A stretch of DNA of 63,306 nucleotides from an uncultured Coprobacillus sp. (GCA_964434915.1 CAYSWW010000001.1:1-63306); one strand, 5' to 3'; counted from the first letter of the stretch, positions 5,800 to 63,306 are shown. Translations and numbers: made by a program. Notes: generated by a model not told the origin, from the letters alone.

Positions 5800-7248
<1,449 letters not shown>

Positions 7249-7286
7249 TTATTATCTTTTATATCTTTTTTCCAAAAATTGAAAAA

Positions 7287-8102
7287 TTAAATTTGATTTT
7301 TGGTTAGGATCATTTCTGCTTTTTGATAGCAAGCATAATAAGGTTTTCCAGTGGAAAAGGCAGTTGCTTTTGTATCTTGAAATTCAACTTCATTTTGCAA
7401 GAGACGTTCACACAAAATTTTCATATCACATAATAATTGGAAGTCTAAACGGTTGTATGATGAAACGTGAGACTGATATTCTTGATGAGCATGACCACCA
7501 TAAAATGTCCATTGATGATCTATATGATACTCTTTTAATAACATTATTGTATGTTGCAATGAATTAAGATATTCTTGAATAGATAAAGCGCCATCAACCT
7601 GCATCCAAACACCACATCCTGATCCAATTGCATCACCTGTAAAAAGACAATGGGTGAGCATATCAGCAAATAAAAAACTTCCAGGCGTATGGCCATAGCA
7701 TGGAATAGCAATGATTTTTCTATCACCTAGTGAGAAAACTTGTTGTTGATGAATATCTTTTATATGATCAAAGCATTGAAAAGCTAAACCAATTATATGA
7801 AAATGATCATTTGGATTTGTCGAGAGATGAGTATGCTCTTGATATATCTTTTGATCATGATGAGACATATAGACTGATGGGAATTCCTGGCTACGACCTA
7901 TATGATCAATATGGCCATGTGTTAAAACAACTGCATATGGTGTTGAAATAAGATTATCGATAACTGGTTTTAATAGTTGACGTGACATACCGGTATCAAT
8001 GATAAGTCCTTGCTTTTCACCTTTAATAGCATAGATACAGCCATCATATTCATCTAAAATTTGATAGGTTGAAGAATTGATTTGATTGATTTGATAACCC
8101 AT
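7287..8102 (-). CDS. MBL-fold metallo-hydrolase
   Basis: THGHIDH (HxHxDH) motif with downstream His/Asp ligands. Confidence 0.8.
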   Translation of the reverse strand: MGYQINQINSSTYQILDEYDGCIYAIKGEKQGLIIDTGMSRQLLKPVIDNLISTPYAVVLTHGHIDHIGRSQEFPSVYMSHHDQKIYQEHTHLSTNPNDHFHIIGLAFQCFDHIKDIHQQQVFSLGDRKIIAIPCYGHTPGSFLFADMLTHCLFTGDAIGSGCGVWMQVDGALSIQEYLNSLQHTIMLLKEYHIDHQWTFYGGHAHQEYQSHVSSYNRLDFQLLCDMKILCERLLQNEVEFQDTKATAFSTGKPYYACYQKAEMILTKNQI

Positions 8103-8134
8103 AAGTGAATGAAAAGCTTGTCATATGACAAGCT

Positions 8135-9589
<1,455 letters not shown>

Positions 9590-9665: not shown

Positions 9666-11535
9666 AGTTAATTTGGAGTTTTTCCCATTCATTCATAAGT
9701 TGTTCCAATTCAAGATTGGCTTGATCCATTTGTTTAATCATTTCATTATATTTTTGATAATCATTGAGAACATTTTCATCTTGAATCATTTCATTATATT
9801 GATTAATTTGATTTTCTAATTCTGATATTTGTTTTTCAATCTTTTTTATTTGATTTTTTTGTTTACGTAATTCGGATTGTGATTTTTTCTTTTCTAGATA
9901 AGCAGTATTATTTTCTTTTTCCACTTTAGGTTCAGTTTTATAGCTCAAAAAATTTGTATAATTTCCAGTATATGTATTGGCTTGATAAGGTGTCATTTCC
10001 ACAATTTTTGTAGCTAACTTATTGATAAAATAACGATCATGACTAATAAAGAGAATTGTACCTTGAAAAGCTAACAAAGCATCTTCTAAGACTTCTTTTG
10101 ACTCAATATCCAAATGATTTGTTGGTTCATCAAGGACCAAGAAATTACATTGCGATAGAAGTAATTTCATCAAAACAACACGACCTCTTTCACCACCAGA
10201 TAAAACATCAATAGGTTTAAAAACATCATCACCTTTAAACTGGAAAGAAGCACAAACATTTCTAATTTGAGTATTATTCATTTGTGGATAAGCATCACTG
10301 ATTTCTTGGAAAATTGTTTTATGAAATGATAAAGAAGTATGTTCCTGGTCATAATATCCAATCATAACTTTACTACCTAACTTGATTTTTCCATCTATTG
10401 GTTTTAAGTCACCAAGTAAAATATGAAAAAGTGTTGTCTTACCGATACCATTAGGGCCTATTAAAGCGACCCTTTCTTGTTTTTTTACTTCAAAATTAAT
10501 ATGATCAAACAATGGTTTATCAAATGCCATAGCAAGATCTTTTATTTTTAAGACATCATATCCAGATTCAACAAGAGGATTAAATTGTATCTTCATAGCT
10601 TCTGGTAAAGCATCAGGTTTTTCTACTTTCTCCATTTTTTCTAATGCTTTTTCTTTGCTTTCAGCTCTTTTGACTTGTTTTTCTCTGCCGAAAGATTTTA
10701 AAAGATCGATACTTTCTTGCATACGTTTTATCTCTTTTTGATTATTGATATAATGTTTTAATTCAACATCTCGGTTATGTTTTTTGATTGTAGCATACTC
10801 TTGATAAGAACATTTATAAAGAGTGGATTTTCCATTTTCTATTTCAATGATCTGATTAGTCACTTGATCGATAAAATATCTATCATGTGAGACCATAATA
10901 ATGGCATTTGAATAATTCTTTAAATAGCTTTCTAACCATTCTATTGATTCTACATCCAAATGGTTAGTTGGTTCATCCAATAATAAAAGAGATGGTTTTC
11001 GTAATAACAATCTTCCTAAAGCAATTCTTGTTTTCTGTCCACCTGATAATATCCCCACTGTCATATGCCACATTTCTTCAGAAAAACCAAGTCCCTTTAA
11101 AACACCTTTTATTTGGCTTTGATAAGTATATCCATTATCTCTTTCAAATTCATAAGTTAATTGATCATATTCTTTCATAATAGATTCTAACTCTTGAGTA
11201 GAAGACATCAGTTGTTCTAATTCACGTAGACGTTCTTCTTTTTTGATTAAGGGTTGAAATACGTCTAATAAGGCATTATATAACGTCAATGAAGGATCGA
11301 TAGTATTATGTTGTGATAAATAACCAATAGTGACATCTTTAGGTTTAGAAATAACACCACTATCATAACTTTCTTCATTACATAGAATTTTTAATAACGT
11401 TGTTTTGCCTGCACCATTAACACCAATAATAGCTATTTTATCATGTTCTTCAATTTTGAATGTAATATCTTTAAGTAAATCCATTCCTTGAAAAGATTTT
11501 TTTAAAGATGAACAAGAGAGTATCATTTTCATCAC
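9664..11535 (-). CDS. ABC-F family ATPase (two ABC domains, no membrane domain, C-terminal coiled coil)
   Basis: Two Walker A sites (GVNGAGKTT, GPNGIGKTT), two LSGG signatures, two LLLDEPTNHLD/LVLDEPTNHLD Walker B sites, and a KQ/E-rich tail. Confidence 0.9.
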   Translation of the reverse strand: MMKMILSCSSLKKSFQGMDLLKDITFKIEEHDKIAIIGVNGAGKTTLLKILCNEESYDSGVISKPKDVTIGYLSQHNTIDPSLTLYNALLDVFQPLIKKEERLRELEQLMSSTQELESIMKEYDQLTYEFERDNGYTYQSQIKGVLKGLGFSEEMWHMTVGILSGGQKTRIALGRLLLRKPSLLLLDEPTNHLDVESIEWLESYLKNYSNAIIMVSHDRYFIDQVTNQIIEIENGKSTLYKCSYQEYATIKKHNRDVELKHYINNQKEIKRMQESIDLLKSFGREKQVKRAESKEKALEKMEKVEKPDALPEAMKIQFNPLVESGYDVLKIKDLAMAFDKPLFDHINFEVKKQERVALIGPNGIGKTTLFHILLGDLKPIDGKIKLGSKVMIGYYDQEHTSLSFHKTIFQEISDAYPQMNNTQIRNVCASFQFKGDDVFKPIDVLSGGERGRVVLMKLLLSQCNFLVLDEPTNHLDIESKEVLEDALLAFQGTILFISHDRYFINKLATKIVEMTPYQANTYTGNYTNFLSYKTEPKVEKENNTAYLEKKKSQSELRKQKNQIKKIEKQISELENQINQYNEMIQDENVLNDYQKYNEMIKQMDQANLELEQLMNEWEKLQIN

Positions 11536-11689: not shown

Positions 11690-12190
11690 TATTTCTGCTC
11701 GGTTGTCAGCAACAAAATACCGATATACAAGATTCGCAAGATGAAACGGGAGAAACACCAATACAAACGCAGATAGATTCAACATCTCAAACAAAATTGA
11801 CAATACCACTTCTTCTAATCAACAAACAACAAAAAAGAAGAAGTATCAATAACATCATATCTAGAAACAACTGGAAATAGCCAACTGGATCAGATTGGTG
11901 ATACGATTTGAGATTTTATTATTATTTCCTAAATGAATGAACACCAATATAGTGGTAGTGTTGAAATAAATGATTGGACTCAGGAAGCAATGAAAGCTTT
12001 TAATTCTCGCAAGAGAAATTGTATAGCATTTTGTTATACTTCTAAAGCGTTGTTAACATGTTTGGGTTTTGAAAATTTAGAAGTCCGTGGAAAAAATGAT
12101 AATCGTCGTTGGAACATGGTGAAAGTAAATGAAAATTGAGATTATTTTGATATGACTTATCTTGTTACTCTAGCTTAATGAGCATAGCAA
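11690..12190 (+). pseudogene. Degraded lipoprotein with transglutaminase-like domain
   Basis: Lipobox-like LLGCQQQ readable near 11700. ORF 11933..12139 holds the fragment NCIAFCYTSKALLTCLGFENLEVRG...WNMVKV. Several frame breaks. Confidence 0.5.
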
Positions 12191-12377
12191 AAACATGACA
12201 AGTGATTTTATATGATCATTTGCTTTAATTTTACAAAAATATCAAGTGTGATATAAAAAAAGTTATTGAAAATAAACGAGAAATAAAAGGGGAAATATTG
12301 CATTTTTATGTGAAAAATGTTGTCTTTTTTGAAACGAATTTTCTTAATATAATAAAGATAGGAGGGAGGTAACTAAA

Positions 12378-14279
12378 ATGCGATTATATTTGATAATGAA
12401 AGATTTTATCGAACAAGCTACTTATCTCTCTATTGATTATTTTATAACTAAATATGATGTATCAAAGAGAACAATTCAAAAAGATATTTCTTATTTGATG
12501 CGTATATCACCTCGAAAAGGATTTCGACTTCACATGAAAAGAGGTGAAGGATATTTATTAGAAGTGACTAATAGAGTATTGCTGGAAGATTTTATGGAAA
12601 CATTAAATGAAAGTTTTTTTGTGCCAACAAAGGAAAGGCCCTCTCAAATTCTATCTTTTTTATCTGTACAAAATGGATATGTTTCTATGGATAAAATTGC
12701 AGATATGCTACAAGTATCAAAAACAGTAATTAAGAATGATATGAAAGATGTGGATCAATTAGCTCAACATTATCATCTTAAAGTCGAAAGGAAGCATCAC
12801 TATGGTGTTAGAATTATAGGTGATGAAAAATATATCAAGAATTATTTGGTTGAAGAATATTTGGAACAGAATTTTATTATACAAACTGCCATCAATGATG
12901 TTGTGAAAGATTTTAAAGTCGTAGAGGATTATTTTGCTGACTTATTAATACATGAAAATTTGAATGTCAATTATAATGAGTTACTAAATATAACAGAATA
13001 TTTAAAAGTGATGGTATATATAGCGGTTTTAAACCATGAGAATGAAGATGATAGGATTGTTGAAAATGATACTTTGCATCGTATAGCAAGATCGATAATA
13101 GTTTTATTAAAGAATATATATCATGTTGAATTTTCTTGGCAAAGTATTCAAGAATTAATAAGTGTGTTAAATAAGAATGTCAGAAAACGTATAGAAAATG
13201 TTAGTTTTAGTACTACTCTCGAAAGCGATATTAACGAATTTTTAAAGAATATAGATCAAACATATCAAACAAAATTTTTGAATGATGAGGATTTTAAACG
13301 ATTTTTAATTACACATGTCACACTATTAATTGATCGTTTACGAGATAAAATCTCTTATAAAAATGAATTGGCTAACAAATTAAGTATTACGAATCCAACA
13401 GTTTTTAATATTGCTATTCAATTTTGCGATATGTTATCAGAAAAATACAATGTTGAATCTACTTTTGATGAAATAGGATTTGTGGCTATGCATTTTGCAG
13501 GTCACATGGAAAAAGAAAAACAGTTAAAATTACAATCTTATAATCGTATTGGTGTTATTTGTTCATCTGGTGGTGGTAGTGCTTATATAATAAAGCTTCA
13601 AATTGAGTCACTATTTCCATCTGCAACAGTTCAAACCTTTTCTTTTTTGCAACCAAAAGATTTGCTGGCATATCATCCAGATTTGATTTTTACAGTTATA
13701 CCGTTATCATTTGATGTTCAAGTTCCTATTATCTATATCAAAGAATTACTAGATGATAAAGATTTAATACGTATTAAACAGATTTTGCAAACAGATGAAT
13801 ATGATCCTTATACATTAATACATAATGATCCACCCTATGTTGCTTTCTTTTCTAAAGACTTTTTCAAAATTGTTGAAGAAAATGATTATGAACGTTTAAT
13901 TTATACCATGGCTATGGAGTTAGAAGAAAAGCAATATGGAAAAAAAGGATTTACAGATATGGTCATGCAAAGAGAATCTTTTGTCAGTACGATTTACTTG
14001 AATGGTATTTGCATTCCTCATCCTATTGAAACAAATGCACGAAAAAATATGATATCTGTTTGTGTCTTAAAAAAGCCATTTGTATGGGATGACAAAGATG
14101 TCAAAATTGTTTTTATGGTTTGTTTAAAAAAAGATCAAATAGAGATGTATAAAGTTCTAACAATACAATTATATAAATTGATGTATGAAAAGAAATATAT
14201 CGATCGTATTTTAAAAGGAAAATCATTTGAAGAAATGATGGCAGTTATGAAAGAAATAGGAGATGTTGATCATGAATAA
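12378..14279 (+). CDS. PRD-domain transcriptional regulator with EIIB-like and EIIA-like domains (BglG/MtlR/LicR type)
   Basis: N-terminal HTH, central PRD region, GVICSSGGGSAY (EIIB-Gat-like Cys) and a C-terminal IPHP EIIA-Ntr-like region. No AAA+ module. Confidence 0.8.
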   Translation: MRLYLIMKDFIEQATYLSIDYFITKYDVSKRTIQKDISYLMRISPRKGFRLHMKRGEGYLLEVTNRVLLEDFMETLNESFFVPTKERPSQILSFLSVQNGYVSMDKIADMLQVSKTVIKNDMKDVDQLAQHYHLKVERKHHYGVRIIGDEKYIKNYLVEEYLEQNFIIQTAINDVVKDFKVVEDYFADLLIHENLNVNYNELLNITEYLKVMVYIAVLNHENEDDRIVENDTLHRIARSIIVLLKNIYHVEFSWQSIQELISVLNKNVRKRIENVSFSTTLESDINEFLKNIDQTYQTKFLNDEDFKRFLITHVTLLIDRLRDKISYKNELANKLSITNPTVFNIAIQFCDMLSEKYNVESTFDEIGFVAMHFAGHMEKEKQLKLQSYNRIGVICSSGGGSAYIIKLQIESLFPSATVQTFSFLQPKDLLAYHPDLIFTVIPLSFDVQVPIIYIKELLDDKDLIRIKQILQTDEYDPYTLIHNDPPYVAFFSKDFFKIVEENDYERLIYTMAMELEEKQYGKKGFTDMVMQRESFVSTIYLNGICIPHPIETNARKNMISVCVLKKPFVWDDKDVKIVFMVCLKKDQIEMYKVLTIQLYKLMYEKKYIDRILKGKSFEEMMAVMKEIGDVDHE

Positions 14280-41868: not shown

Positions 41869-43335
41869 GTGAGTTTTCCTAAAGATTTTTTATGGGGTGG
41901 TTCAGTAAGTGCTGCCCAGATTGAAGGAGGATGGAATGAAGGTGGAAAATCACCTGTTTCTGTAGATTATTGTACGGCAGGATCCACAACTGAGCACCGT
42001 CAGATATGGTATTTGGATGAAAATGGTCAAAGAGCACATATGACTTGGGAACCTGTTGATGAGTTACCAAAAGGAGCTAAATATCAGCTTTTTGATGATT
42101 TGCATTATACAAATCATGTTGCTAGTGATTTTTATCATCGTTATAAAGAAGATATCGCATTGATGGCAGAAATGGGATATACCACATTTAACACATCTAT
42201 CTCATGGGCGAGAATTTATCCATATGGTATTCAAGGTGGAGTGAATCAGGAAGGTGTTGACTTCTATCGTGATGTTTTTACAGAATGTCGTAAATATGGT
42301 ATGGATCCAGTGATTACTTTATATAAGTATGATGAACCTGTTTCTTTAAATGAACAGCATGGTGGTTGGACAAATCGTGCTATGATTGATGAGTTTGTTG
42401 AATTTACAAGAGTCTGCTTTACAGAATATAAGGATTTAGTCAATAAATGGATGACATTTAATGAAATCAATATCATTATGCCAAGAGAAGATACACCAAA
42501 AGAAAAAGCACAGCGTAATCTGGTTTATTTACATAATCAATTGGTTGCTGCTGCAAAAGCAACAATTGTAGCTCATGAAATTGATCCAAATCTGAAAGTT
42601 GGAGCTATGATTTGTGGAAATATGTCTTATCCTTTGACACCAGATCCAGAAGATGCATTCGCACAATACAAGAATTTCCAGAATTTCTTCTGTTATAGTG
42701 CAGATACGCAGGTCAGAGGGGAATATCCTAGTTTTGCTAAACGTGTATGGAAAGAATGGGATGTGGACTTACATATCAGTGAAGAAGACAAATGTATTTT
42801 GAAAGAAGGAAAGGCAGATTTTTTGGGATTCTCGTATTATGCTTCAGGTGTTGTCACGACACATGAAGCTGAACATTCTAATGTGACAGGAGGAAATGTT
42901 TTAGGTACAGTAAAGAATCCATATTTAAAAGCCAATGCTTGGGGATGGCAAATTGACCCATTAGGATTTAAACATTTCTTACATATTTTAAATGATCGTT
43001 ATCAGGTTCCTTTATTTGATGTAGAAAATGGAATTGGATTGATTGAATCTGAAGGAGAAGATGGTATCTGTCACGATGAAGCGAGAATTGATTATCATCG
43101 CCAACATATTCAACGTATGAAAGAAAGTATTGAAGAAGGTGTTAATCTATTTGGTTATACAACTTGGGGATGTATTGATTTAGTTTCTGCTGGAACAGGA
43201 CAGATGGATAAAAAATATGGATTTATATATGTTGATATGGATGATCAGGGTCATGGTGATTTACATCGTTCAAGAAAAGATTCATTTTATTGGTATCAGA
43301 AAGTTATTCGTTCAAATGGTGAAGATTTAGATTAG
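41869..43335 (+). CDS. GH1 6-phospho-beta-glucosidase (BglA/AscB-like)
   Basis: GTG start after AAGGAGG. FLWGGSVSAAQIEGG, TFNEIN, VENGIG, KKYGFIYVD. Confidence 0.9.
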   Translation: MSFPKDFLWGGSVSAAQIEGGWNEGGKSPVSVDYCTAGSTTEHRQIWYLDENGQRAHMTWEPVDELPKGAKYQLFDDLHYTNHVASDFYHRYKEDIALMAEMGYTTFNTSISWARIYPYGIQGGVNQEGVDFYRDVFTECRKYGMDPVITLYKYDEPVSLNEQHGGWTNRAMIDEFVEFTRVCFTEYKDLVNKWMTFNEINIIMPREDTPKEKAQRNLVYLHNQLVAAAKATIVAHEIDPNLKVGAMICGNMSYPLTPDPEDAFAQYKNFQNFFCYSADTQVRGEYPSFAKRVWKEWDVDLHISEEDKCILKEGKADFLGFSYYASGVVTTHEAEHSNVTGGNVLGTVKNPYLKANAWGWQIDPLGFKHFLHILNDRYQVPLFDVENGIGLIESEGEDGICHDEARIDYHRQHIQRMKESIEEGVNLFGYTTWGCIDLVSAGTGQMDKKYGFIYVDMDDQGHGDLHRSRKDSFYWYQKVIRSNGEDLD

Positions 43336-46856: not shown

Positions 46857-47789
46857 ATGACTATAACACGTTTAATAAGTGCTACAGGTGAAGATATTGA
46901 AAAAATGTCACCAATGGAGCTCAAAAAATCCATTTTGAAATCAGAAAGGCGTGTTGTCATGGGTCAACATCTCTTGTTTGCAGGGAATGGTTTAGTGAGA
47001 GGTGTGACGAATAGTGAACTGATGTTTGCTTTTGGGGCAGATATGGTGATGTTGAATACTTTTGATTTAGATCATCTTGATCAAAATCCTGGTCTTTGTG
47101 GTTTGTCTTTTCAGGAATTGAAACAAAAATGTCGTCGACCGATAGGTATTTATCTAGGATGTCCAAAAGTTGGCAGTGATGATGGAGGAAAAAAGGTTCT
47201 CTATCGTAGAGAAGGTATGCTGGCAAGTGATGAACACGTTCAAAAATGTATTGATTTAGGTGTGGATTTTATTGTCTTAGGTGGTAATCCAGGAAGTGGA
47301 ACTTCGATTTGTGATATTGTAGAAGCAACAAAAAGAATTAAAGCTAAATTTCAGGACTCAATCTTTGTGTTTGCAGGAAAATGGGAAGATGGGGTTGATG
47401 AAAAAGTTTTAGGAGATCCTCTTGCTGATTACGACAGCAAGACTATTATTAAAGAATTGATTGATGCAGGTGCAGATTGCATTGATTTACCTGCACCAGG
47501 ATCTAGACATGGTATTACAACAGAAATGATTAGAGAATTGGTTGAATATATTCATCGTTATAAACCAGGAACATTGGCTATGACGTTTTTAAACAGTTCT
47601 GTCGAATGTGCAGATCTAGATACAATTCGTTTGATTGCATTAAAAATGAAAGAAACAGGTGCTGATATTCATGCCATTGGTGATGGTGGGTTTGGCGGTT
47701 GTACTTCACCGGAAAATATCCATCAGTTATCTGTTTCATTAAAAGGGAAACAATATACATATTTTAGAATGGCAAGTGTGAACAGATAG
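46857..47789 (+). CDS. Conserved protein of unknown function (predicted alpha/beta-barrel-like), paralog of 50907..51842
   Basis: 310 aa. Shared blocks ELMFAFGADMV, GIYLGCP, LGGNPGSGTS, FAGKWEDG..EKVLGDPLADYD, PAPGSRHGIT, HAIGDGGFGG. Confidence 0.7.
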   Translation: MTITRLISATGEDIEKMSPMELKKSILKSERRVVMGQHLLFAGNGLVRGVTNSELMFAFGADMVMLNTFDLDHLDQNPGLCGLSFQELKQKCRRPIGIYLGCPKVGSDDGGKKVLYRREGMLASDEHVQKCIDLGVDFIVLGGNPGSGTSICDIVEATKRIKAKFQDSIFVFAGKWEDGVDEKVLGDPLADYDSKTIIKELIDAGADCIDLPAPGSRHGITTEMIRELVEYIHRYKPGTLAMTFLNSSVECADLDTIRLIALKMKETGADIHAIGDGGFGGCTSPENIHQLSVSLKGKQYTYFRMASVNR

Positions 47790-48436: not shown

Positions 48437-49912
<1,476 letters not shown>

Positions 49913-50906: not shown

Positions 50907-51842
50907 ATGGAATTACATGACACTATTACAAGATTAATAAGTGCTAAGCCTTCACAGATTTCTACTTATTCAGGAAGAGATTTAAAAGAATCTATCTTGA
51001 AATCAGAAGGACGTGTTCTGATGGGCCAGACATACTTAAAAAATCCAATTTTATTTCCCAATTGTACCATTACGGAATTAATGTTTGCTTTTGGAGCGGA
51101 TATGGTTTTATTAAATGGTTTTGATCTTCACAATCCTCAAAGCTGTCCGGGTTTACAGGGCTTTGATTATCAAAGTCTTAAAGATTTGGTAGGAGGTAGA
51201 CCGGTAGGTATTTATTTGGGATGCCCTCGTGCTGATATTGATTTGAATAGTTCACGTTTTGATGAGTTAAAAGGAATGGTTTGTACACTTGAAAATCTTC
51301 AGAAAATTAAAGAATGGGGTGTATCGTTTTTGATTTTAGGTGGGAATCCAGGTAGTGGAACTTCCATTGAGAATGTTATCAAATGGACCAAAATCGCTCG
51401 TGAAGTTTGTGGAGATGATATGTTGATTTTTGCTGGAAAATGGGAAGATGGCATTGTTGAAAAGGTTCTAGGAGATCCACTGGCTGATTATGATGCTTAT
51501 GAAATAATTGATCAACTGATTCATTCTGGTGCCGATATTATTGATTTTCCAGCTCCAGGATCACGTCACGGAATCACTGTTGAACGTATTCGTGAATTGA
51601 TTGAGCATACGCATCGTCAAGGAGCTTTAGCGATGTCCTTTTTAAATAGCAATGTTGAAGCAGCTGATGTCGAGACTATTCGTCAAATTACATTGATGAT
51701 GAAGCAGACAGGATGTGATGTTCATGCGATTGGTGACGGTGGATTTGGTGGCGGAACATGGCCTGAAAATATCTATCAGATGTCTATCACATTGAAGGGA
51801 AAAGCGTATACTTGGGCTCAGATGGCAACGCCAAGACGTTGA
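50907..51842 (+). CDS. Conserved protein of unknown function, paralog of 46857..47789
   Basis: 311 aa, more than half identical by eye to the 46857..47789 product, with the same conserved blocks. Confidence 0.7.
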   Translation: MELHDTITRLISAKPSQISTYSGRDLKESILKSEGRVLMGQTYLKNPILFPNCTITELMFAFGADMVLLNGFDLHNPQSCPGLQGFDYQSLKDLVGGRPVGIYLGCPRADIDLNSSRFDELKGMVCTLENLQKIKEWGVSFLILGGNPGSGTSIENVIKWTKIAREVCGDDMLIFAGKWEDGIVEKVLGDPLADYDAYEIIDQLIHSGADIIDFPAPGSRHGITVERIRELIEHTHRQGALAMSFLNSNVEAADVETIRQITLMMKQTGCDVHAIGDGGFGGGTWPENIYQMSITLKGKAYTWAQMATPRR

Positions 51843-54562: not shown

Positions 54563-54840
54563 AAATCAACTGATTTGAATTATAGACATATTAAGAGTTT
54601 TATCAAAACGTCTTGGTCGTGTAATCAAGGTTCCGATGGTTTTTCTTTCAAGTAAGACTTTAATCATCAAGATTTTATCAATAATGAAATAATTTTAGAT
54701 ATAAGCTTATGATAATCTATGACATCAATGGGTAAGGATTTTTTTATTGTTAGTAAGTCAATATACAAAATACTTATTGTGTTTTATTTCTTTTAATGAG
54801 AAAATATAAGGTAGAAAAAGTAAATAATGAGGTTATTATC

Positions 54841-57758
54841 ATGGATGAAATGACGACATATGAAGACTTAGAAAAAGAAAATAAGCAACTCAAAAAAAGA
54901 ATAGAATATTTAGAAAAACTTTTAGATACTCATAATATTGTTTATCAGCAATTAAAAGAGAAAACTCATAATTTTTTAATGAATAATGAAATGATTACTC
55001 CAAGACATGCTATTGAATTTTATCGTGTTTTTAAAGGGAGAAAAGATGTCTATAGTCAAAGGCATGTTAATAAAGATGGGAGAATTGGATATTTTCCTCA
55101 ATGTGAAAACTTTTGGAAAAATGAAATTTGTTTAAAAAAAACAAAAAAATAAAATGTAAGGATTGTCCAAATAGAAAATGGAAAGAATTAAATCAAAAAG
55201 TTATTATGGAACATCTTAAAGGAAATGATATCAATGGTAATGATGTCATAGGTATTTATCCTATGTTAGAAGATGAAACGACAAATTTATTGGTATTTGA
55301 TTTTGATAATCACGAAGTCGGCACAGATGGAGAGAATATTGATAATAGTTGGAAAGAAGAAGTCAATGCTCTAAGAAAAATTTGTCAATTACAACAAATT
55401 GATATTCTTGTAGAAAGATCACGATCTGGTCGAGGTGCTCATCTTTGGATTTTCTTTGATAAACCCTTATCAGCTATAACAGCAAGACATTTTGGCAGAG
55501 CGTTATTAAATATAGGAGTCCAATCTATTAATTTAAAAACTTTTAAAACATATGATCGTATGATTCCTGCACAAGATTATTTAGCAGATGATGGGTTAGG
55601 AAATTTAATTGCATTACCATTGCAGGGTCAGGCTTTGAAAAAACAAAATAGTGCTTTTGTAGATGAAAATTGGAAGGCTTATCCCTATCAATGGGAATGT
55701 CTTGAAAAAGTTAAAAAACTATCATTGGAATTTGTAGAAGAGAAGCTTCAATTATGGAAAGATAATGATATATTTAGTGAGAATTATGATTATTCGATAT
55801 CTCAACCATGGATTAATGAAAATCATTTTCATAAAGATGATGTCAATCATCATGTTGATATCAAATTTGCAAATATGGTTTATATTGATACAAGAAATTT
55901 AAAGCCAAGAATTCAAAATCAAATAAGATGTTTAGCAGCTTTTAGAAATAAAAATTTTTTTAAGAGACGAGCAATGGGATTATCTGTTAGAGGGATGAAT
56001 TCATGGATAGAATGTGCAATTGATATAGATTATTGGATTTGTCTACCTAGGGGATGTTTATCAGTACTTCTCAATGAATTAGAAGAAAGTCAAATTACAT
56101 ATCATATAGAGGATCTTAGAAATTCGCAAAAGAAAATAGAAGTTGATTTTATAGGTCAACTATATGATAATCAACAAGAGGCATGTAATGCATTATTGGA
56201 AAATGATATAGGAATTTGTCATGCAACGACTGCATTTGGCAAAACAGTTGTTGGAACAAACTTGATAGCTCAAAGAAAAGTGAATACACTCATTATCGTT
56301 CATACCAATTTGATTATGAATAATTGGGAAGGTGATCTTAATCGTTTTTTAAGTATTCATGAGGAATTACCAACATACATAACTCCATCAGGGATAAAGA
56401 AAACAAGAAAGAGTGTCATTGGGAAATTATTTAGTAATCATAATTCTTTAACTAGTATTATTGATATTGCTATTGTCAATTCGCTTATTACAAAAGGTGA
56501 AATCAAAGATTTGGTTAGGAACTATGGGATGATTATTGTAGATGAATGTCATCATAGTGCATCTGCTATGCTTTATGATGTACTCACTGAGGTTCGTGCT
56601 AAATATGTTTATGGATTTACTGCAACTCCAAAAAGAGAAGATGGTTTGGAACAAAAAATTTTTATGCAATTGGGACCTATTCGATATCAGTTTACGACCA
56701 AGCAAAGATTACAACTTCAAAATGTTAATCATTATATCTTCCCGCGTTTTACGAGATTCATACATTTAAAAAATACAAAAATATCATTAAATGAAATATA
56801 TCAAAAATTAATTAATAATGAAATAAGAAATCAACAAATTCTTACAGATATAAACGAAGCACTTCAAAATAAACGTACACCATTAGTTATTACTAAATTT
56901 AAGAAACATGCTCAATATTTATATGAACAATTAAAGGGACAAAGTGATCATATTTTTCTGTTAGTCGGCGGAAAAGGACATAAAATCAACAAACAAATAC
57001 GTGAAGACATGAAAAATGTCAGCGAACAAGAAAGTGTTATCATAGTCGCAACGGCACAATATGTAGGAGAGGGCTTTAATTTTCCAAGACTAGATACGTT
57101 ATTTTTAACTGTTCCTATATCTGTGGAAAACAGCATAGAACAATATTCAGGAAGATTACATAGAGATTTTGAAGGGAAAAAAGATGTTATTATTTATGAT
57201 TATATTGATTCACATATAAAAACATTGGAAAAAATGTATCACAAACGTATGAGAACGTACAAAAAGATGGGGTATGAAATATGCACAACATTACATGTCC
57301 GTGAAGATGAAATTCAAATGATACATGATAGCTCTGATTATCAAACAATATTTGATAAAGATATTGAATATGCTAATGATAGTATTGTGATTTCAAGTCC
57401 CGGTTTAAGTCACAAGAGTGTTAATTATTATTTAAGATTATTTCAATCTAAGTTAAAAGAAAATATTCCCATAACAATTCTCACTTTAGATTCTAAAAGT
57501 TATCCTAAAAATATGGTTGAAAAAACGAATAAATTGATTCAAACTTTAAAGGAAAATGCTATTCATGTAGTCATTTCTTCTTCATCATATGGACATTATG
57601 CTATAATTGATAAAGAAATGGTCTGGTATGGAAATATGAATTTATTATCAAATATAAAAGAACAAGATTATATGATGAGAATTTCACACCAACAATTAGT
57701 ATATGAATTATTACGAGAAACAACAAAAGTGATGAAAGAGAAAAAACACGAAAGTTAA
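54841..57758 (+). pseudogene. AEP (primase-polymerase)-SF2 helicase-PLD-like fusion protein gene, split by a -1 frame change in an A8CA7 tract
   Basis: ORFs 54796..55152 and 55128..57758. AEP motifs VFDFD, SRSGRGAHLW, DRMIP. Helicase motifs AFGKT, DECHH, TATP, QYSGRLHR. C-terminal GHYAIIDKEMVWYGNMNLL. ATG 54841 follows a GAGG RBS. Confidence 0.8.
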
Positions 57759-59269: not shown

Positions 59270-60870
59270 ATGGAATATAAAGAATATATGAATCAAGTTC
59301 AACAAAGACTAAAAGAAATGAGTGAAGAAGAAAAGAATCAATGGATTTATCAACATGCTAGAATTCAATCTCAAAAGAGTCGAGAAGATATCTTAAATAG
59401 TTTAAAGTTTCTTCATCCTGCTACTAAAACTTTTAATCGAGTTAAATTCGATCATTTTATTGAAGATGTAAAAGAAGGGATTTTACAAATACCTGCTTAT
59501 GAAGAAGAAATCTATGATTATGGATATGATAGAGATTTTGAAACTTACTATACCAGAAATTGTGAGTTATAAGATCGATTAAATGATTATATTTATGATG
59601 CTTTTCAATATGTTAACAGTTGTCAGTACAATTTAGCTTTCGATATCTTTCAAAATATTCAAAATCTAGATTATGAATATGTCATGGATTACGGAGATAT
59701 TTATGAATTATCATTCAAAGAATTATTTGAAAATAATTTGATGGATATCAGTATTCAAAAATACTGTCTTTATTATCTCTATACAGCTTTTCAATTACAT
59801 TTTGATGTACCAAAAATGTATTCTTATTTAAATCAAAGTCAAGTTCAATATGTTCTCAGTGATTTGATGGCCTTTGGTCCAGAAGAAATCATACTCAGTG
59901 AAGATGAATATAAACAATGGATGACATTTCTAGAAAAGCAGCCTAGTGTATATGCAGCTAAACTATTAAAAGACATATGTCTTTTTTATGAAGATGTTCA
60001 TCAATTAACGAAAATAACTTTAAAAATAGGTGTACAGCATCCTTCTTTATATCTTGATATGATTGAAAATGATTTATCAAATGATCAATTAGAAGATGCT
60101 AGAATACTAGCTACACATGCTTTTAAACAATTAGATAAAAAATTGATCATACGTTCAAAAATAGCTGAGATACTCATTCCTTATTTTCAAGATAATCAAG
60201 AATTATATGAAATAGCGTTTTTATCAAATCCTCAAGTCAAGTATTGTTTACAATTATATAAATTGAATTGTGATGTAACTTCTATAAAAAATACATTTAT
60301 CAATATAGATTATGCACGATACAATGATATGATGGATGCTGAACAAAAAACAGCAACCTTAACATCTAATCAAAAACAGGTTTTGAACTTTTTATTAGGA
60401 GATTATAAAGAAGTTATTAATAAATGCCAAGAAGATCAGAGTTATTTAGGGTGGACAACAAGTTTAAAAGGTATCATTGTACCGTTACTTCTTATGTATT
60501 TAAAACCAGAAAAAATGCATTATGTAGCTGATGCTGTTATTATGAAAGATTTAAGCCAAATGCTGATGGATGATGAAAAAGAATTTAATCAATTATTTCA
60601 TATTTGGAAAGAAAAATATATGATGGATGAAAACTTTAAGAAAAAATGTATACACTGGTTAGAAACTGAAATGAATAAAAGAACTGAAGCCATTGTGGGT
60701 GGAACTCATCGCCGCAGTTATTATAAAGTGGCTAAATAATTAGTTGTGCTGGCAGAAATTTTATATGAATACAAGAAGATATCGAATATTGATATTTTTA
60801 TTAAAGATTACATCAAAATGTATTCACGTAAATCTGCTTTTAAAGCTCAAATGTTAAAGTATTTTAAATA
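59270..60870 (+). pseudogene. Unknown helical protein gene (about 533 codons) with two in-frame TAA codons
   Basis: ORFs 59270..59572 and 59684..60739, plus a tail to 60870, all share one frame. The only interruptions are TAA at 59570-72 and 60737-39. Confidence 0.55.
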
Positions 60871-60920: not shown

Positions 60921-61357
60921 TGAACATTACTTTATTCATATATATATAATGGAAGTATAAAAAAGATGATATTTATGGATCAAATTAAAGAATGGTGATT
61001 TATGGAAAATGAAGAATTCAATGGGATATCAGCTTATTATTATCAACTACAAAAAACATCTGAATTAAAAGGAGTAGTTAATGACTTAAAAATGATAATA
61101 TTGTTTCATATCACATTTTAATCAGAATATATACATGTTTTTACCATAAGATATCTATATAAAGATTCTTCATAGGTTTATAAATATTTAATAATTGCAT
61201 ATATGATAGTTTATATTATTTTCACTGAAAATAATTAATTAAATATGTATCTATTAAATAGATTGATCAATATAATAATATATGTAGGAAAAACTATCAA
61301 GAACTGTAGAGTATACACACAAATTAAAATATTGCTACTTTTTAGTGAAAAAGATTG

Positions 61358-61373
61358 TTTTTCTTGTATAATA
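61358..61373 (+). promoter_or_regulatory. Probable -10 region (TGTATAAT) upstream of cas9
   Basis: TTTTTCTTGTATAATA lies 36 nt upstream of ATG 61409. No good -35. Confidence 0.35.
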
Positions 61374-61408
61374 TATTTATATAATTTATTTAAAAAGGAT
61401 GGAAAAAG

Positions 61409-63079
61409 ATGGGAAGATTAGTTTTAGGACTTGATATTGGTATTACTTCTGTAGGATATGGAGTTATTGATATTGATAATAATCAATTTGTTGATTATGG
61501 TGTAAGATTATTTAAAGAGGGGACAGCAGCTTCCAATGAAGAAAGACGTACAAAAAGAGGAGCTAGACGTTTAAAGAGAAGAAAAAGAAATCGATTAGAT
61601 GATATGAGAAAACTGCTTGAGCAAAATGGCTTACTGAGTGAAGGATATGTTCCATTACAAAATCCATATGAAATAAGATTGAAAGGTTTAACACAAAAAC
61701 TTACCAATGATGAATTGTGTTGTGCTATTCTACATATTACCAAAAGCCGAGGAACTGTTTTAGAAATTAGTGCTGATGCCTCAAAAGATGAAGAAACAAC
61801 AAAGGCAGTCCTTTCTAAAAATGCAGATTTGTTAAAAGAACATTTTGTCTGCGAAATACAGTTAGACAGATTAAAAGAAGAAGGTCGACTAAGAGGCATT
61901 GATAATAATTTTCAAACGAAAGATTATCTTCATGAATTGTCTACGATTCTTGATCATCAGGATTTAGATGATGATTTGAAACAGCAGATTCTTCAAATTG
62001 TAACAAGAAGACGTCGATACGATCAAGGACCAGGTAGTGAGAAATCACCTACACCTTATGGGAGTTATCGTATTGTTGATGATGAACTTGTACATGTCAA
62101 TCTTATAGACATGATGCGAGGGAGATGTAGCATTTATCCAAATGAATTTAGAGCACCAAAACTATCATATACTGCAGAATTGTTCAATTTATTAAATGAT
62201 TTAAATAATTTAACAATTAACAATGAAAAGATAAATTTGGATGAAAAAGAAAAAGTTATTCAATTTGTCAATAAAAAAGGGAATATAACAGTTAAGCAAC
62301 TATGTAAATTATTAAATGTAACAGAAGATGAGATTAAAGGGTTTAGAATTGATAAAAATGAAAAACCAATCCTTACAGAATTTAAAGGTTATAAAAAAGT
62401 TTTGTCTGTATTTAAGACTTATCATTTAGAAAATATGTTAGAAGATAAAACGATTGTTGATGAAATTATGGATATAAATACGAAAGCAAAGGGAGTAGAT
62501 GAAAGAAAAAAATCTATTCATCAAATGTATCCTTCTTTACCAGAAGATGTTGTCAATGATCTAGCAAATATGAAAGGAGTTTCAGGATATCATTCATTGT
62601 CTTTTAAAATCATGAGAGAGTTAAATGTTGAAATGATGAAAACTGAATTCAATCAAATACAGTTATTACATCAATTAGAGATTTATGATAAAAACAGAAA
62701 ATCTTTAAAAGGAATGAAGAAAATCTATCCTGATGATGAAGCTATATTATCTCCAGTTGCTAAAAGAGCACATCGTGAAACTTTTAAAGTGATTAATAAA
62801 TTAAGAGAAAAGTATGGAGAATTTGATAGCATAGTCATTGAAACGACACGTGATAAAAATAGCGATGAGCGAAGAAAAAGATTGAATGATTATCAAAAAT
62901 TTAATGAAAATAACAATAAGAAAGTGAATGAATTGCTTAATAAAAACGGATTTGAAAGCGATCATATTAATTCTTTGACAAAATTAAAAGTAAGACTTTA
63001 TGAAGAACAAGAGGGAAAAACTGCTTATAAACAAAATGATATTAACTTCAATCTTTTAATCAATGATCCATATTGTTGA
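61409..63079 (+). pseudogene. cas9: Type II Cas9 (small SaCas9-like), truncated after RuvC-II just before the HNH motif
   Basis: GLDIGITSVGYGVI (RuvC-I), Arg-rich bridge helix RRTKRGARRLKRRKRNRL, REC lobe, IVIETTRDKN (RuvC-II), then ...LINDPYC followed by a stop. No HNH, RuvC-III or PI domains. Confidence 0.85.
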
Positions 63080-63129
63080 ACCGCAAATTTTTTAGTTCCA
63101 AAAGTGATAAATTTATTCAAATTAATGAA

Positions 63130-63185
63130 AACAGCTATATAAATATCATGATTAGAAAATAATCATTTTACTTTATATAGCTGTT
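63130..63185. other. Nested hairpin immediately downstream of the cas9 truncation point
   Basis: 14-bp arms AACAGCTATATAAA / TTTATATAGCTGTT enclosing ATGATT...AATCAT. Confidence 0.5.
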
Positions 63186-63220
63186 GTTGTATTCTATATA
63201 ATATAAATCTAAAGAAAGGA

Positions 63221-63262
63221 AAAGGATAAAGTCATCCACGCCAATGTTTGTCTTTATCCTTT
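63221..63262 (-). terminator. Terminator of a minus-strand gene lying beyond the window end
   Basis: AAAGGATAAAG / CTTTATCCTTT stem, followed by a T-rich tract on the minus strand. Confidence 0.55.
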
Positions 63263-63306
63263 GTTCATAGAACGATATCATGATAACTCTTTTTTTAAAA
63301 ATTTCA

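Follow-up and report, generated by a model that had tools for sequence, protein, structure and literature searches.

A 5′ remnant of a type II-A cas9, recently broken and probably joined to repeated or mobile-element DNA, in an uncultured Thomasclavelia-like gut bacterium

The gene at 61409-63079 on the plus strand of the window (the whole stretch of DNA analysed, 63,306 nucleotides, which is also the entire contig) is a genuine, ordinary and recent cas9 pseudogene remnant: 556 codons and a TGA that, by homology and motifs, form the 5′ part of a type II-A cas9. The explanation that we consider probable is that this dead remnant was recently joined to DNA that is likely to belong to a repeated or mobile element. 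A recent rearrangement would have joined codon ∼556 (63072-63076) to unrelated, palindrome-rich, non-coding DNA, and this DNA, which would occur in multiple contexts in the source samples, would most simply form the terminus of a repeated or mobile element, one that had either inserted in cas9 or mediated an adjacent deletion. As a result, the HNH catalytic residues, RuvC-III, WED and PI, together with the tracrRNA, cas1, cas2, csn2 and the array, would have been lost from the contig, the fragment would be unable to act as a Cas9 nuclease, and the host strain would have lost this CRISPR immunity. We infer that the fragment is without function.

The open reading frame is the 5′ part of a type II-A cas9

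The 556-residue product, which ends in ...NLLINDPYC ahead of the TGA, was matched by SaCas9 chains (PDB 5axw and 7el1; query residues 4-555 against chain residues 5-551 of 1053, E-value 3.6e-99), by the PADLOC Cas9 models (up to 2.7e-90) and by the Pfam families Cas9_REC (2.5e-10) and Cas9_a (9.3e-9), both above their cut-offs. It is collinear with SaCas9 (PDB 5axw, 5czz and 7el1), one of the small type II-A Cas9s of Bacillota, over SaCas9 residues 5-551. RuvC-I, the bridge helix, the REC lobe and RuvC-II are all intact in the product; their limits were carried over from SaCas9 via the alignment, using domain boundaries after Nishimasu et al. 2015. By alignment and motif, the RuvC-I segment comprises residues 1-41 (61409-61531, plus strand, as are all parts of the gene), with the catalytic Asp, D9, in the DIGITS motif that starts at residue 9; this residue aligns to D10 of SaCas9, and no relative departs from it. 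The Arg-rich bridge helix (residues ∼42-74, 61532-61630), placed in the same way, contains RRTKRGARRLKRRKRNR from residue 46, and the α-helical REC lobe (residues ∼75-431, 61631-62701) was delimited from Pfam and the SaCas9 alignment. The RuvC-II segment (62726-62863; alignment and motif) carries IVIETTRD from residue 475, which places the catalytic Glu at E478, aligned to SaCas9 E477. Beyond this, the remnant continues through the L1 linker and ∼30 residues into HNH.

Upstream of the gene, a Shine-Dalgarno-like AGGATGG, read from the sequence, lies at 61396-61402 (plus strand), 6 nt before the ATG. A consensus scan found a promoter-like site (GTGAAA, 16 nt, TATAAT) at 61345-61372 on the plus strand, 37 nt before the start codon, with 10 of 12 consensus matches; since such sites are regionally no commoner than in shuffles, we treat this candidate cas9 promoter as a lead only. 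Transcription and translation of the remnant may continue.

The reading frame stops just short of the catalytic core of the HNH domain. Its last residues are D-P-Y-C, and in a 10-sequence alignment with nine relatives the orthologues add one residue and then continue E-I-D-H-I-I-P, so the frame is cut three codons ahead of the catalytic D-H of the HNH motif, (Y/F/T)-E-I-D-H. The protein alignment stops at Y555/C556, and cas9 homology ends at 63073-63076. Set against SaCas9, the product stops three codons before D556/H557 and has no HNH core, RuvC-III, WED or PI, and the window has no tracrRNA, adaptation genes or array. The original prediction, made from the sequence alone, had the gene identity, the motifs and the breakpoint right, as judged by the SaCas9 match, the motif positions and the 10-sequence alignment; the comparison with full-length orthologues that it had proposed for placing the breakpoint is the one that put it at Y555/C556.

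The remainder of the locus is absent from the contig

The nearest relatives of this cas9 are 66-70% identical to it, and the range discussed here is 53-70%; all are type II-A and Thomasclavelia-like. Their gene order is cas9, tracrRNA anti-repeat, cas1, cas2, csn2 and array, with the anti-repeat between cas9 and cas1 in L004, L006 and L011, with a Csn2 that scores 1e-108, and with a clade CRISPR repeat of 36 nt (GTTTTGTTACCATA-type). For comparison, a Thomasclavelia spiroformis metagenome-assembled genome carries an intact type II-A locus (L011; NZ_JAGZCC010000061.1), which encodes a Cas9 that shares the start MGRLVLGLDIG with the window product and is 64-66% identical to it over the shared 551 residues. 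The L011 Cas9 runs on to ∼1105 residues and is followed by the tracrRNA, cas1, cas2, csn2 and nine 36-nt repeats, and the flanking genes of this locus differ from those of the window.

None of these parts was found in the window. The catalytic D-H...N of HNH is absent: there was no Pfam HNH_4 match and, by tblastn, no HNH similarity in any downstream frame, which bears out the earlier statement that none follows the stop codon. A 12-codon tblastn extension past the stop was weak and at chance level. We also rejected the idea that TGA is a sense codon, as TGA ends 6 of the 37 long open frames in the contig, and read-through would add just 20 codons without HNH similarity. When the C-terminal half of the L011 Cas9 and the L011 Cas1, Cas2 and Csn2 were used as tblastn queries, nothing matched in the 63-kb window beyond the N-terminal half, and RuvC-III, WED and PI were thus not seen there. 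The window holds no tandem array, no tracrRNA anti-repeat and no tRNA; the 36-nt repeat of the clade does not occur there at ≤3 mismatches, and Rfam, at gathering and E-value thresholds, gave chance snoRNA matches only. Because the window is the entire contig, 63,306 nt being the greatest length among contigs with this protein, and its right end lies 227 nt past the cas9 stop, that end bounds every absence downstream. The original prediction that adaptation genes and repeats are missing therefore stands for the 63-kb contig, but not as a statement about the DNA downstream. Given the gene order of the relatives, everything to the right of the break, the tracrRNA included, is gone from the contig.

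Where the missing part went was addressed by searching the C-terminal half of a relative's Cas9 against 5.8 billion proteins. None of the 117 matches could be attributed to a C-terminal cas9 piece of the window species; the good matches all belong to other lineages, and the sample of origin was not filterable. To a small degree, this result speaks against a simple insertion that would have left the 3′ half of the gene close by. It also fits a clean deletion, in which everything from codon 556 through the tracrRNA, cas1, cas2, csn2 and the array was removed in one illegitimate recombination, leaving the 5′ part of cas9 joined to a single-copy native flank made of the trailer and the terminators of a convergent gene. 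We regard this as possible but rather unlikely, for reasons that emerge from the junction, from the DNA that follows it and from a second lineage.

The break is a real DNA junction

The protein alignment and the ends of Logan contigs together place the junction between cas9 and unrelated DNA at 63072-63076. The allele, identical over all 556 residues, also occurs in two Logan assemblies that are independent of each other (SRR7039257 and SRR7039263; contigs L001 and L010). Relative to the window, 1-2 SNPs were counted across 7.7 and 11.3 kb, none of them in cas9, so the three known copies of the allele represent one clone. Since the same allele was recovered in independent assemblies, the junction-spanning k-mers come from reads. 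We conclude that the break is a real DNA junction and not an assembly artefact. The idea that a metagenome assembly wrongly joined cas9 to unrelated DNA draws on the fact that the window is a metagenome-type contig that ends soon after the junction, but the same junction is present in the two further assemblies, from other sequencing runs and at k = 31, and the two sides of the junction share no more than ∼5 nt of microhomology, much less than k, so that the junction k-mers must exist in the reads. We therefore give such a chimera almost no credence.

The positions at which the Logan contigs end carry further information. In Logan, contigs are built at k = 31, each 31-mer is unique per accession, and neighbouring contigs overlap by 30 nt (PMC12424806). 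Both L001 and L010 terminate at window position 63101, exactly k-1 = 30 nt past 63072; their final 30 nt thus correspond to 63072-63101, and this overlap begins 1-4 nt from the end of cas9 homology. Neither assembly branches on the cas9 side, and those samples therefore contain no intact allele that shares this 5′ half. These contig ends, from two assemblies of one strain, are most simply read to mean that the DNA from 63072 rightwards also sits behind another left neighbour, i.e., that it is repeated or multi-context, and from this we infer a repeated or mobile element to the right of the break. In principle, a sequence variant at 63102 could end both contigs in place of multi-context DNA, but such a variant would have to fall exactly k-1 nt from the breakpoint by coincidence. 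A clean deletion to a unique native flank leaves unexplained two contig ends at k-1 with no branch on the cas9 side.

The DNA joined to cas9 is non-coding and rich in palindromes

From 63080 to the contig end at 63306, the tail is non-coding, with 24% G+C, no cas similarity and no database match. The 235 nt from the junction (63072-63306) fold better than shuffles on both strands (z = −4.4), because of two palindromes that were apparent from both sequence and folding. The first, at 63130-63185, is nested, with 14-bp arms AACAGCTATATAAA and TTTATATAGCTGTT around ATGATTA and TAATCAT; the second, at 63222-63261, has the arms AAGGATAAAG and CTTTATCCTT separated by 20 nt. On the minus strand a T-rich run comes after the second palindrome, which may be a terminator of a gene beyond the contig end and is a candidate for that role from its sequence. 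The original prediction of a convergent terminator within 200 bp is borne out to the extent that two palindromes lie there, but a terminator scan called neither, the loop of the 63222-63261 palindrome being too long.

The tail gave no match to plasmids and phages (blastn) or, as exact patterns, to IMG/VR and JGI metagenomes, and a 45-codon minus-strand frame that runs off the contig end has no homologue among 5.8 billion proteins. No transposase, integrase, terminal inverted repeat or target duplication was found in the 235 nt to the right of the junction, and the 63-kb window holds no second copy of the tail.

The layout of the tail resembles an ordinary intergenic stretch between convergent genes. 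A non-coding tail with hairpins is what a clean deletion to the native flank would leave, as judged from the stretch between the array and the convergent gene in L004. Additional, weak support for a clean deletion comes from the first ∼45 nt of the tail, which beat 98-99.9% of windows (i.e., rank in the top 0.1-2%) when compared with the degenerate terminal repeat of L011 and L004, and from a CCATAT microhomology between the cas9 breakpoint and the clade repeat. However, the likeness to the terminal repeat was noticed post hoc, the tail is never the best match in the window under four scoring schemes, and the likeness is lost with the consensus repeat or with stricter scoring. The tail as an array terminal repeat plus trailer was accordingly rejected as a candidate: its local alignment scores were 22-25, compared with 36-40 elsewhere in the window.

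cas9 breakage among the closest relatives

Breaks in cas9 were found repeatedly among the relatives, and they take different forms. In L006, from a widespread relative, the codon for the RuvC-II Glu is changed from GAA to TAA (SIVI-TAA-MTRD; 10368-10373), which splits cas9 into 477 and 626 residues; the same allele occurs in L007, L008 and L009, so that it is known from four contig sources, including ENA, JGI and Logan. The cas1, cas2 and csn2 genes and the 15-repeat array of the TAA-allele locus look intact. This locus also has, at 8825-8853 of L006, a repeat-like sequence (GTTTTGTTACCTTATAAATAGTGCTAGAA), directly oriented, ∼85 nt upstream of the cas9 start and far from the array. A frameshift in an A-run (CAAGAAAAAAAAGAAGAATAA, at about 11455-11476) splits cas9 into 491 and 580 residues in L004 and L005, with the identical lesion in two independent assemblies. 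In L011, the sole locus found here with a full-length cas9, it is csn2 that is split, into 143 and 132 residues (12049-12894).

Other relatives lose cas9 homology abruptly. In L002 (10001-13538), a cas9 of 636 residues ends just past the HNH motif, and a convergent Tn916-type integrase with Xis lies 155 nt after cas9. Upstream in the same contig is a type I cas3-cas4-cas1-cas2 cluster with an IS21-like element. The relatives also include chimeric reading frames in which cas9 passes into unrelated sequence: the P0053 product, from an ENA contig of 5086 nt, is Cas9 over its first ∼294 residues and continues into surface-protein-like sequence with a C-terminal membrane anchor, and is another junction-type cas9 break. 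For the closest relatives, an independently broken cas9 is thus the rule.

Inactivation of cas genes by IS elements that inserted naturally is on record (Sheng et al. 2023, PMC10359306). Like these genes broken by IS or mobile elements, and like L002, the window shows abrupt loss of homology within cas9, and the right side of its junction behaves as repeated DNA in assemblies. Unlike them, its 235 nt of tail show no element hallmark, and the remainder of cas9 was not found.

An analogous junction in a second lineage

The closest parallel to the window is the cas9 of P0027/P0028, which is 53% identical to the window cas9 and has a product that terminates in ...YTEI-EALHQ. Here cas9 homology is lost within the Asp codon of EIDH, at L012:11709, past which a MEGAHIT k141 contig ends at +140 nt and a Logan k31 contig at +30 nt; as two values of k agree, there is one boundary. 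For this lineage an intact allele is available (L014), and it is 99.8% identical up to exactly that base (11709/11710 in L012; 1242 in L014). The L012 tail, for which there was no database match, is nowhere in the 12.9 kb of L014, which include 7.8 kb beyond its array. Its absence from both the intact allele and the flank means that the break is not a deletion to the array flank and that foreign DNA was joined at this base, in a recent event.

The P0027/P0028 break resembles that of the window in that a foreign junction lies within ∼10 nt of the corresponding position in cas9 and contigs stop k-1 nt past it. It differs in that it belongs to another species-level lineage (53% identity) and has an unrelated tail, and an intact allele is known for it, whereas none is known for the window's strain. 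The comparison bears on how the window junction arose, as in the lineage with an intact allele the tail equivalent to that of the window is not in the flank, contrary to the expectation for a clean deletion. We lean to a repeated or mobile element because the right side of the window junction is multi-context and because the L012 tail is absent from the intact allele and its flank. On these grounds an element junction, whether made by insertion alone or by insertion and then loss of neighbouring DNA, is favoured over a clean deletion to native flank. The original prediction had listed the right alternatives (a deletion, an insertion and, as least likely, a retained N-terminal fragment), but the order in which it put them is not borne out, as the assemblies point to multi-context DNA on the right, beginning at the breakpoint.

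We considered the possibility that the stretch just before the HNH motif is a preferred or recurrent site at which mobile elements disable immunity in Thomasclavelia-like gut bacteria. Two independent foreign junctions within ∼10 nt in cas9 genes that are only 53% identical, both with the multi-context signature (in the window and in P0027/P0028), would be consistent with this idea. Yet the two tails have no similarity to each other, neither is like the Tn916-like end in L002, and no recombinase was seen; moreover, with approximately five junction-type breaks, the chance that two fall within four codons is, by our rough estimate, 0.07. A recurrent landing site thus seems improbable. A single element common to the window, L012 and L002 was rejected as a candidate, as the tails are unrelated.

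Age of the break and the neighbouring DNA

The fragment shows no sign of decay. In a leave-one-out comparison over 418 columns and 14 sequences, the window fragment has 1 private change at columns that are invariant elsewhere, a count no higher than in intact relatives and, per divergence, lower than in several of them. The lack of excess change at invariant positions argues that the cas9 break is probably recent, which fits the first of the two options that had been offered for the lesion-free frame, namely that the event is recent or that the fragment is constrained.

The second option, that the N-terminal half is kept under selection for a non-nuclease role (RNA-binding, regulatory or dominant-negative), could draw on the same conservation and on the 556 open codons, the good ribosome-binding site and the promoter-like site. 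A recent break accounts for the same facts, however, and all three known copies are one clone. Moreover, this end point is not that of any conserved family of Cas9 halves, the truncations in relatives falling at many positions and arising from different lesions; the tracrRNA and array that such a protein would bind are gone; and a neighbouring defence gene, encoding a PrimPol-helicase, is broken too. We consider selection for the fragment very improbable, and a retained, working HNH-less half less likely than the recurrent landing site discussed above.

The broken neighbour is a primase-polymerase/helicase gene 3.6 kb upstream of cas9 (54796-57758, plus strand), which matches Pfam AEP-TOTE (4e-66) and the PADLOC ‘CAS-associated PrimPol’ model (4e-55). 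A frameshift in an A-run (TTTAAAAAAAACAAAAAAATAA, 55128-55152), identical in Logan contig L010, splits it into 118 and 876 residues, so that cas9 is not the only disrupted defence gene in this part of the contig. Between this gene and cas9 lie open reading frames of 100 and 351 residues (59270-60739, plus strand), for which Pfam gave no match and PADLOC none that was convincing; identical sequences are known from contigs of this strain alone.

The rest of the contig is unremarkable chromosomal DNA from a low-G+C Bacillota, with genes for family 1 glycoside hydrolases, GFO/IDH/MocA oxidoreductases and a glyoxalase. Diverged paralogues of the family 1 glycoside hydrolase, with 75-87% DNA identity, lie at 5800-9553 (minus strand), 41869-43335 and 48458-49912 (both plus strand), and two DUF7916 genes lie at 46857-47789 and 50907-51842 (plus strand). 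These copies suggest duplicated β-glucoside utilisation cassettes.

Meaning of the cas9 break

CRISPR-Cas systems are costly to carry, and cas genes are known to be inactivated by mutations and by mobile elements; the repeated breakage of cas9 in this clade fits both. The remnant described here would mean that type II-A CRISPR immunity has recently been lost from one strain of an uncultured gut bacterium that is Thomasclavelia-like, and it adds another case in a clade whose cas9 is repeatedly broken by different lesions. Alone, its importance is small; it would be larger only if breakpoints turned out to be concentrated at the HNH boundary or the fragment to be expressed and under selection.
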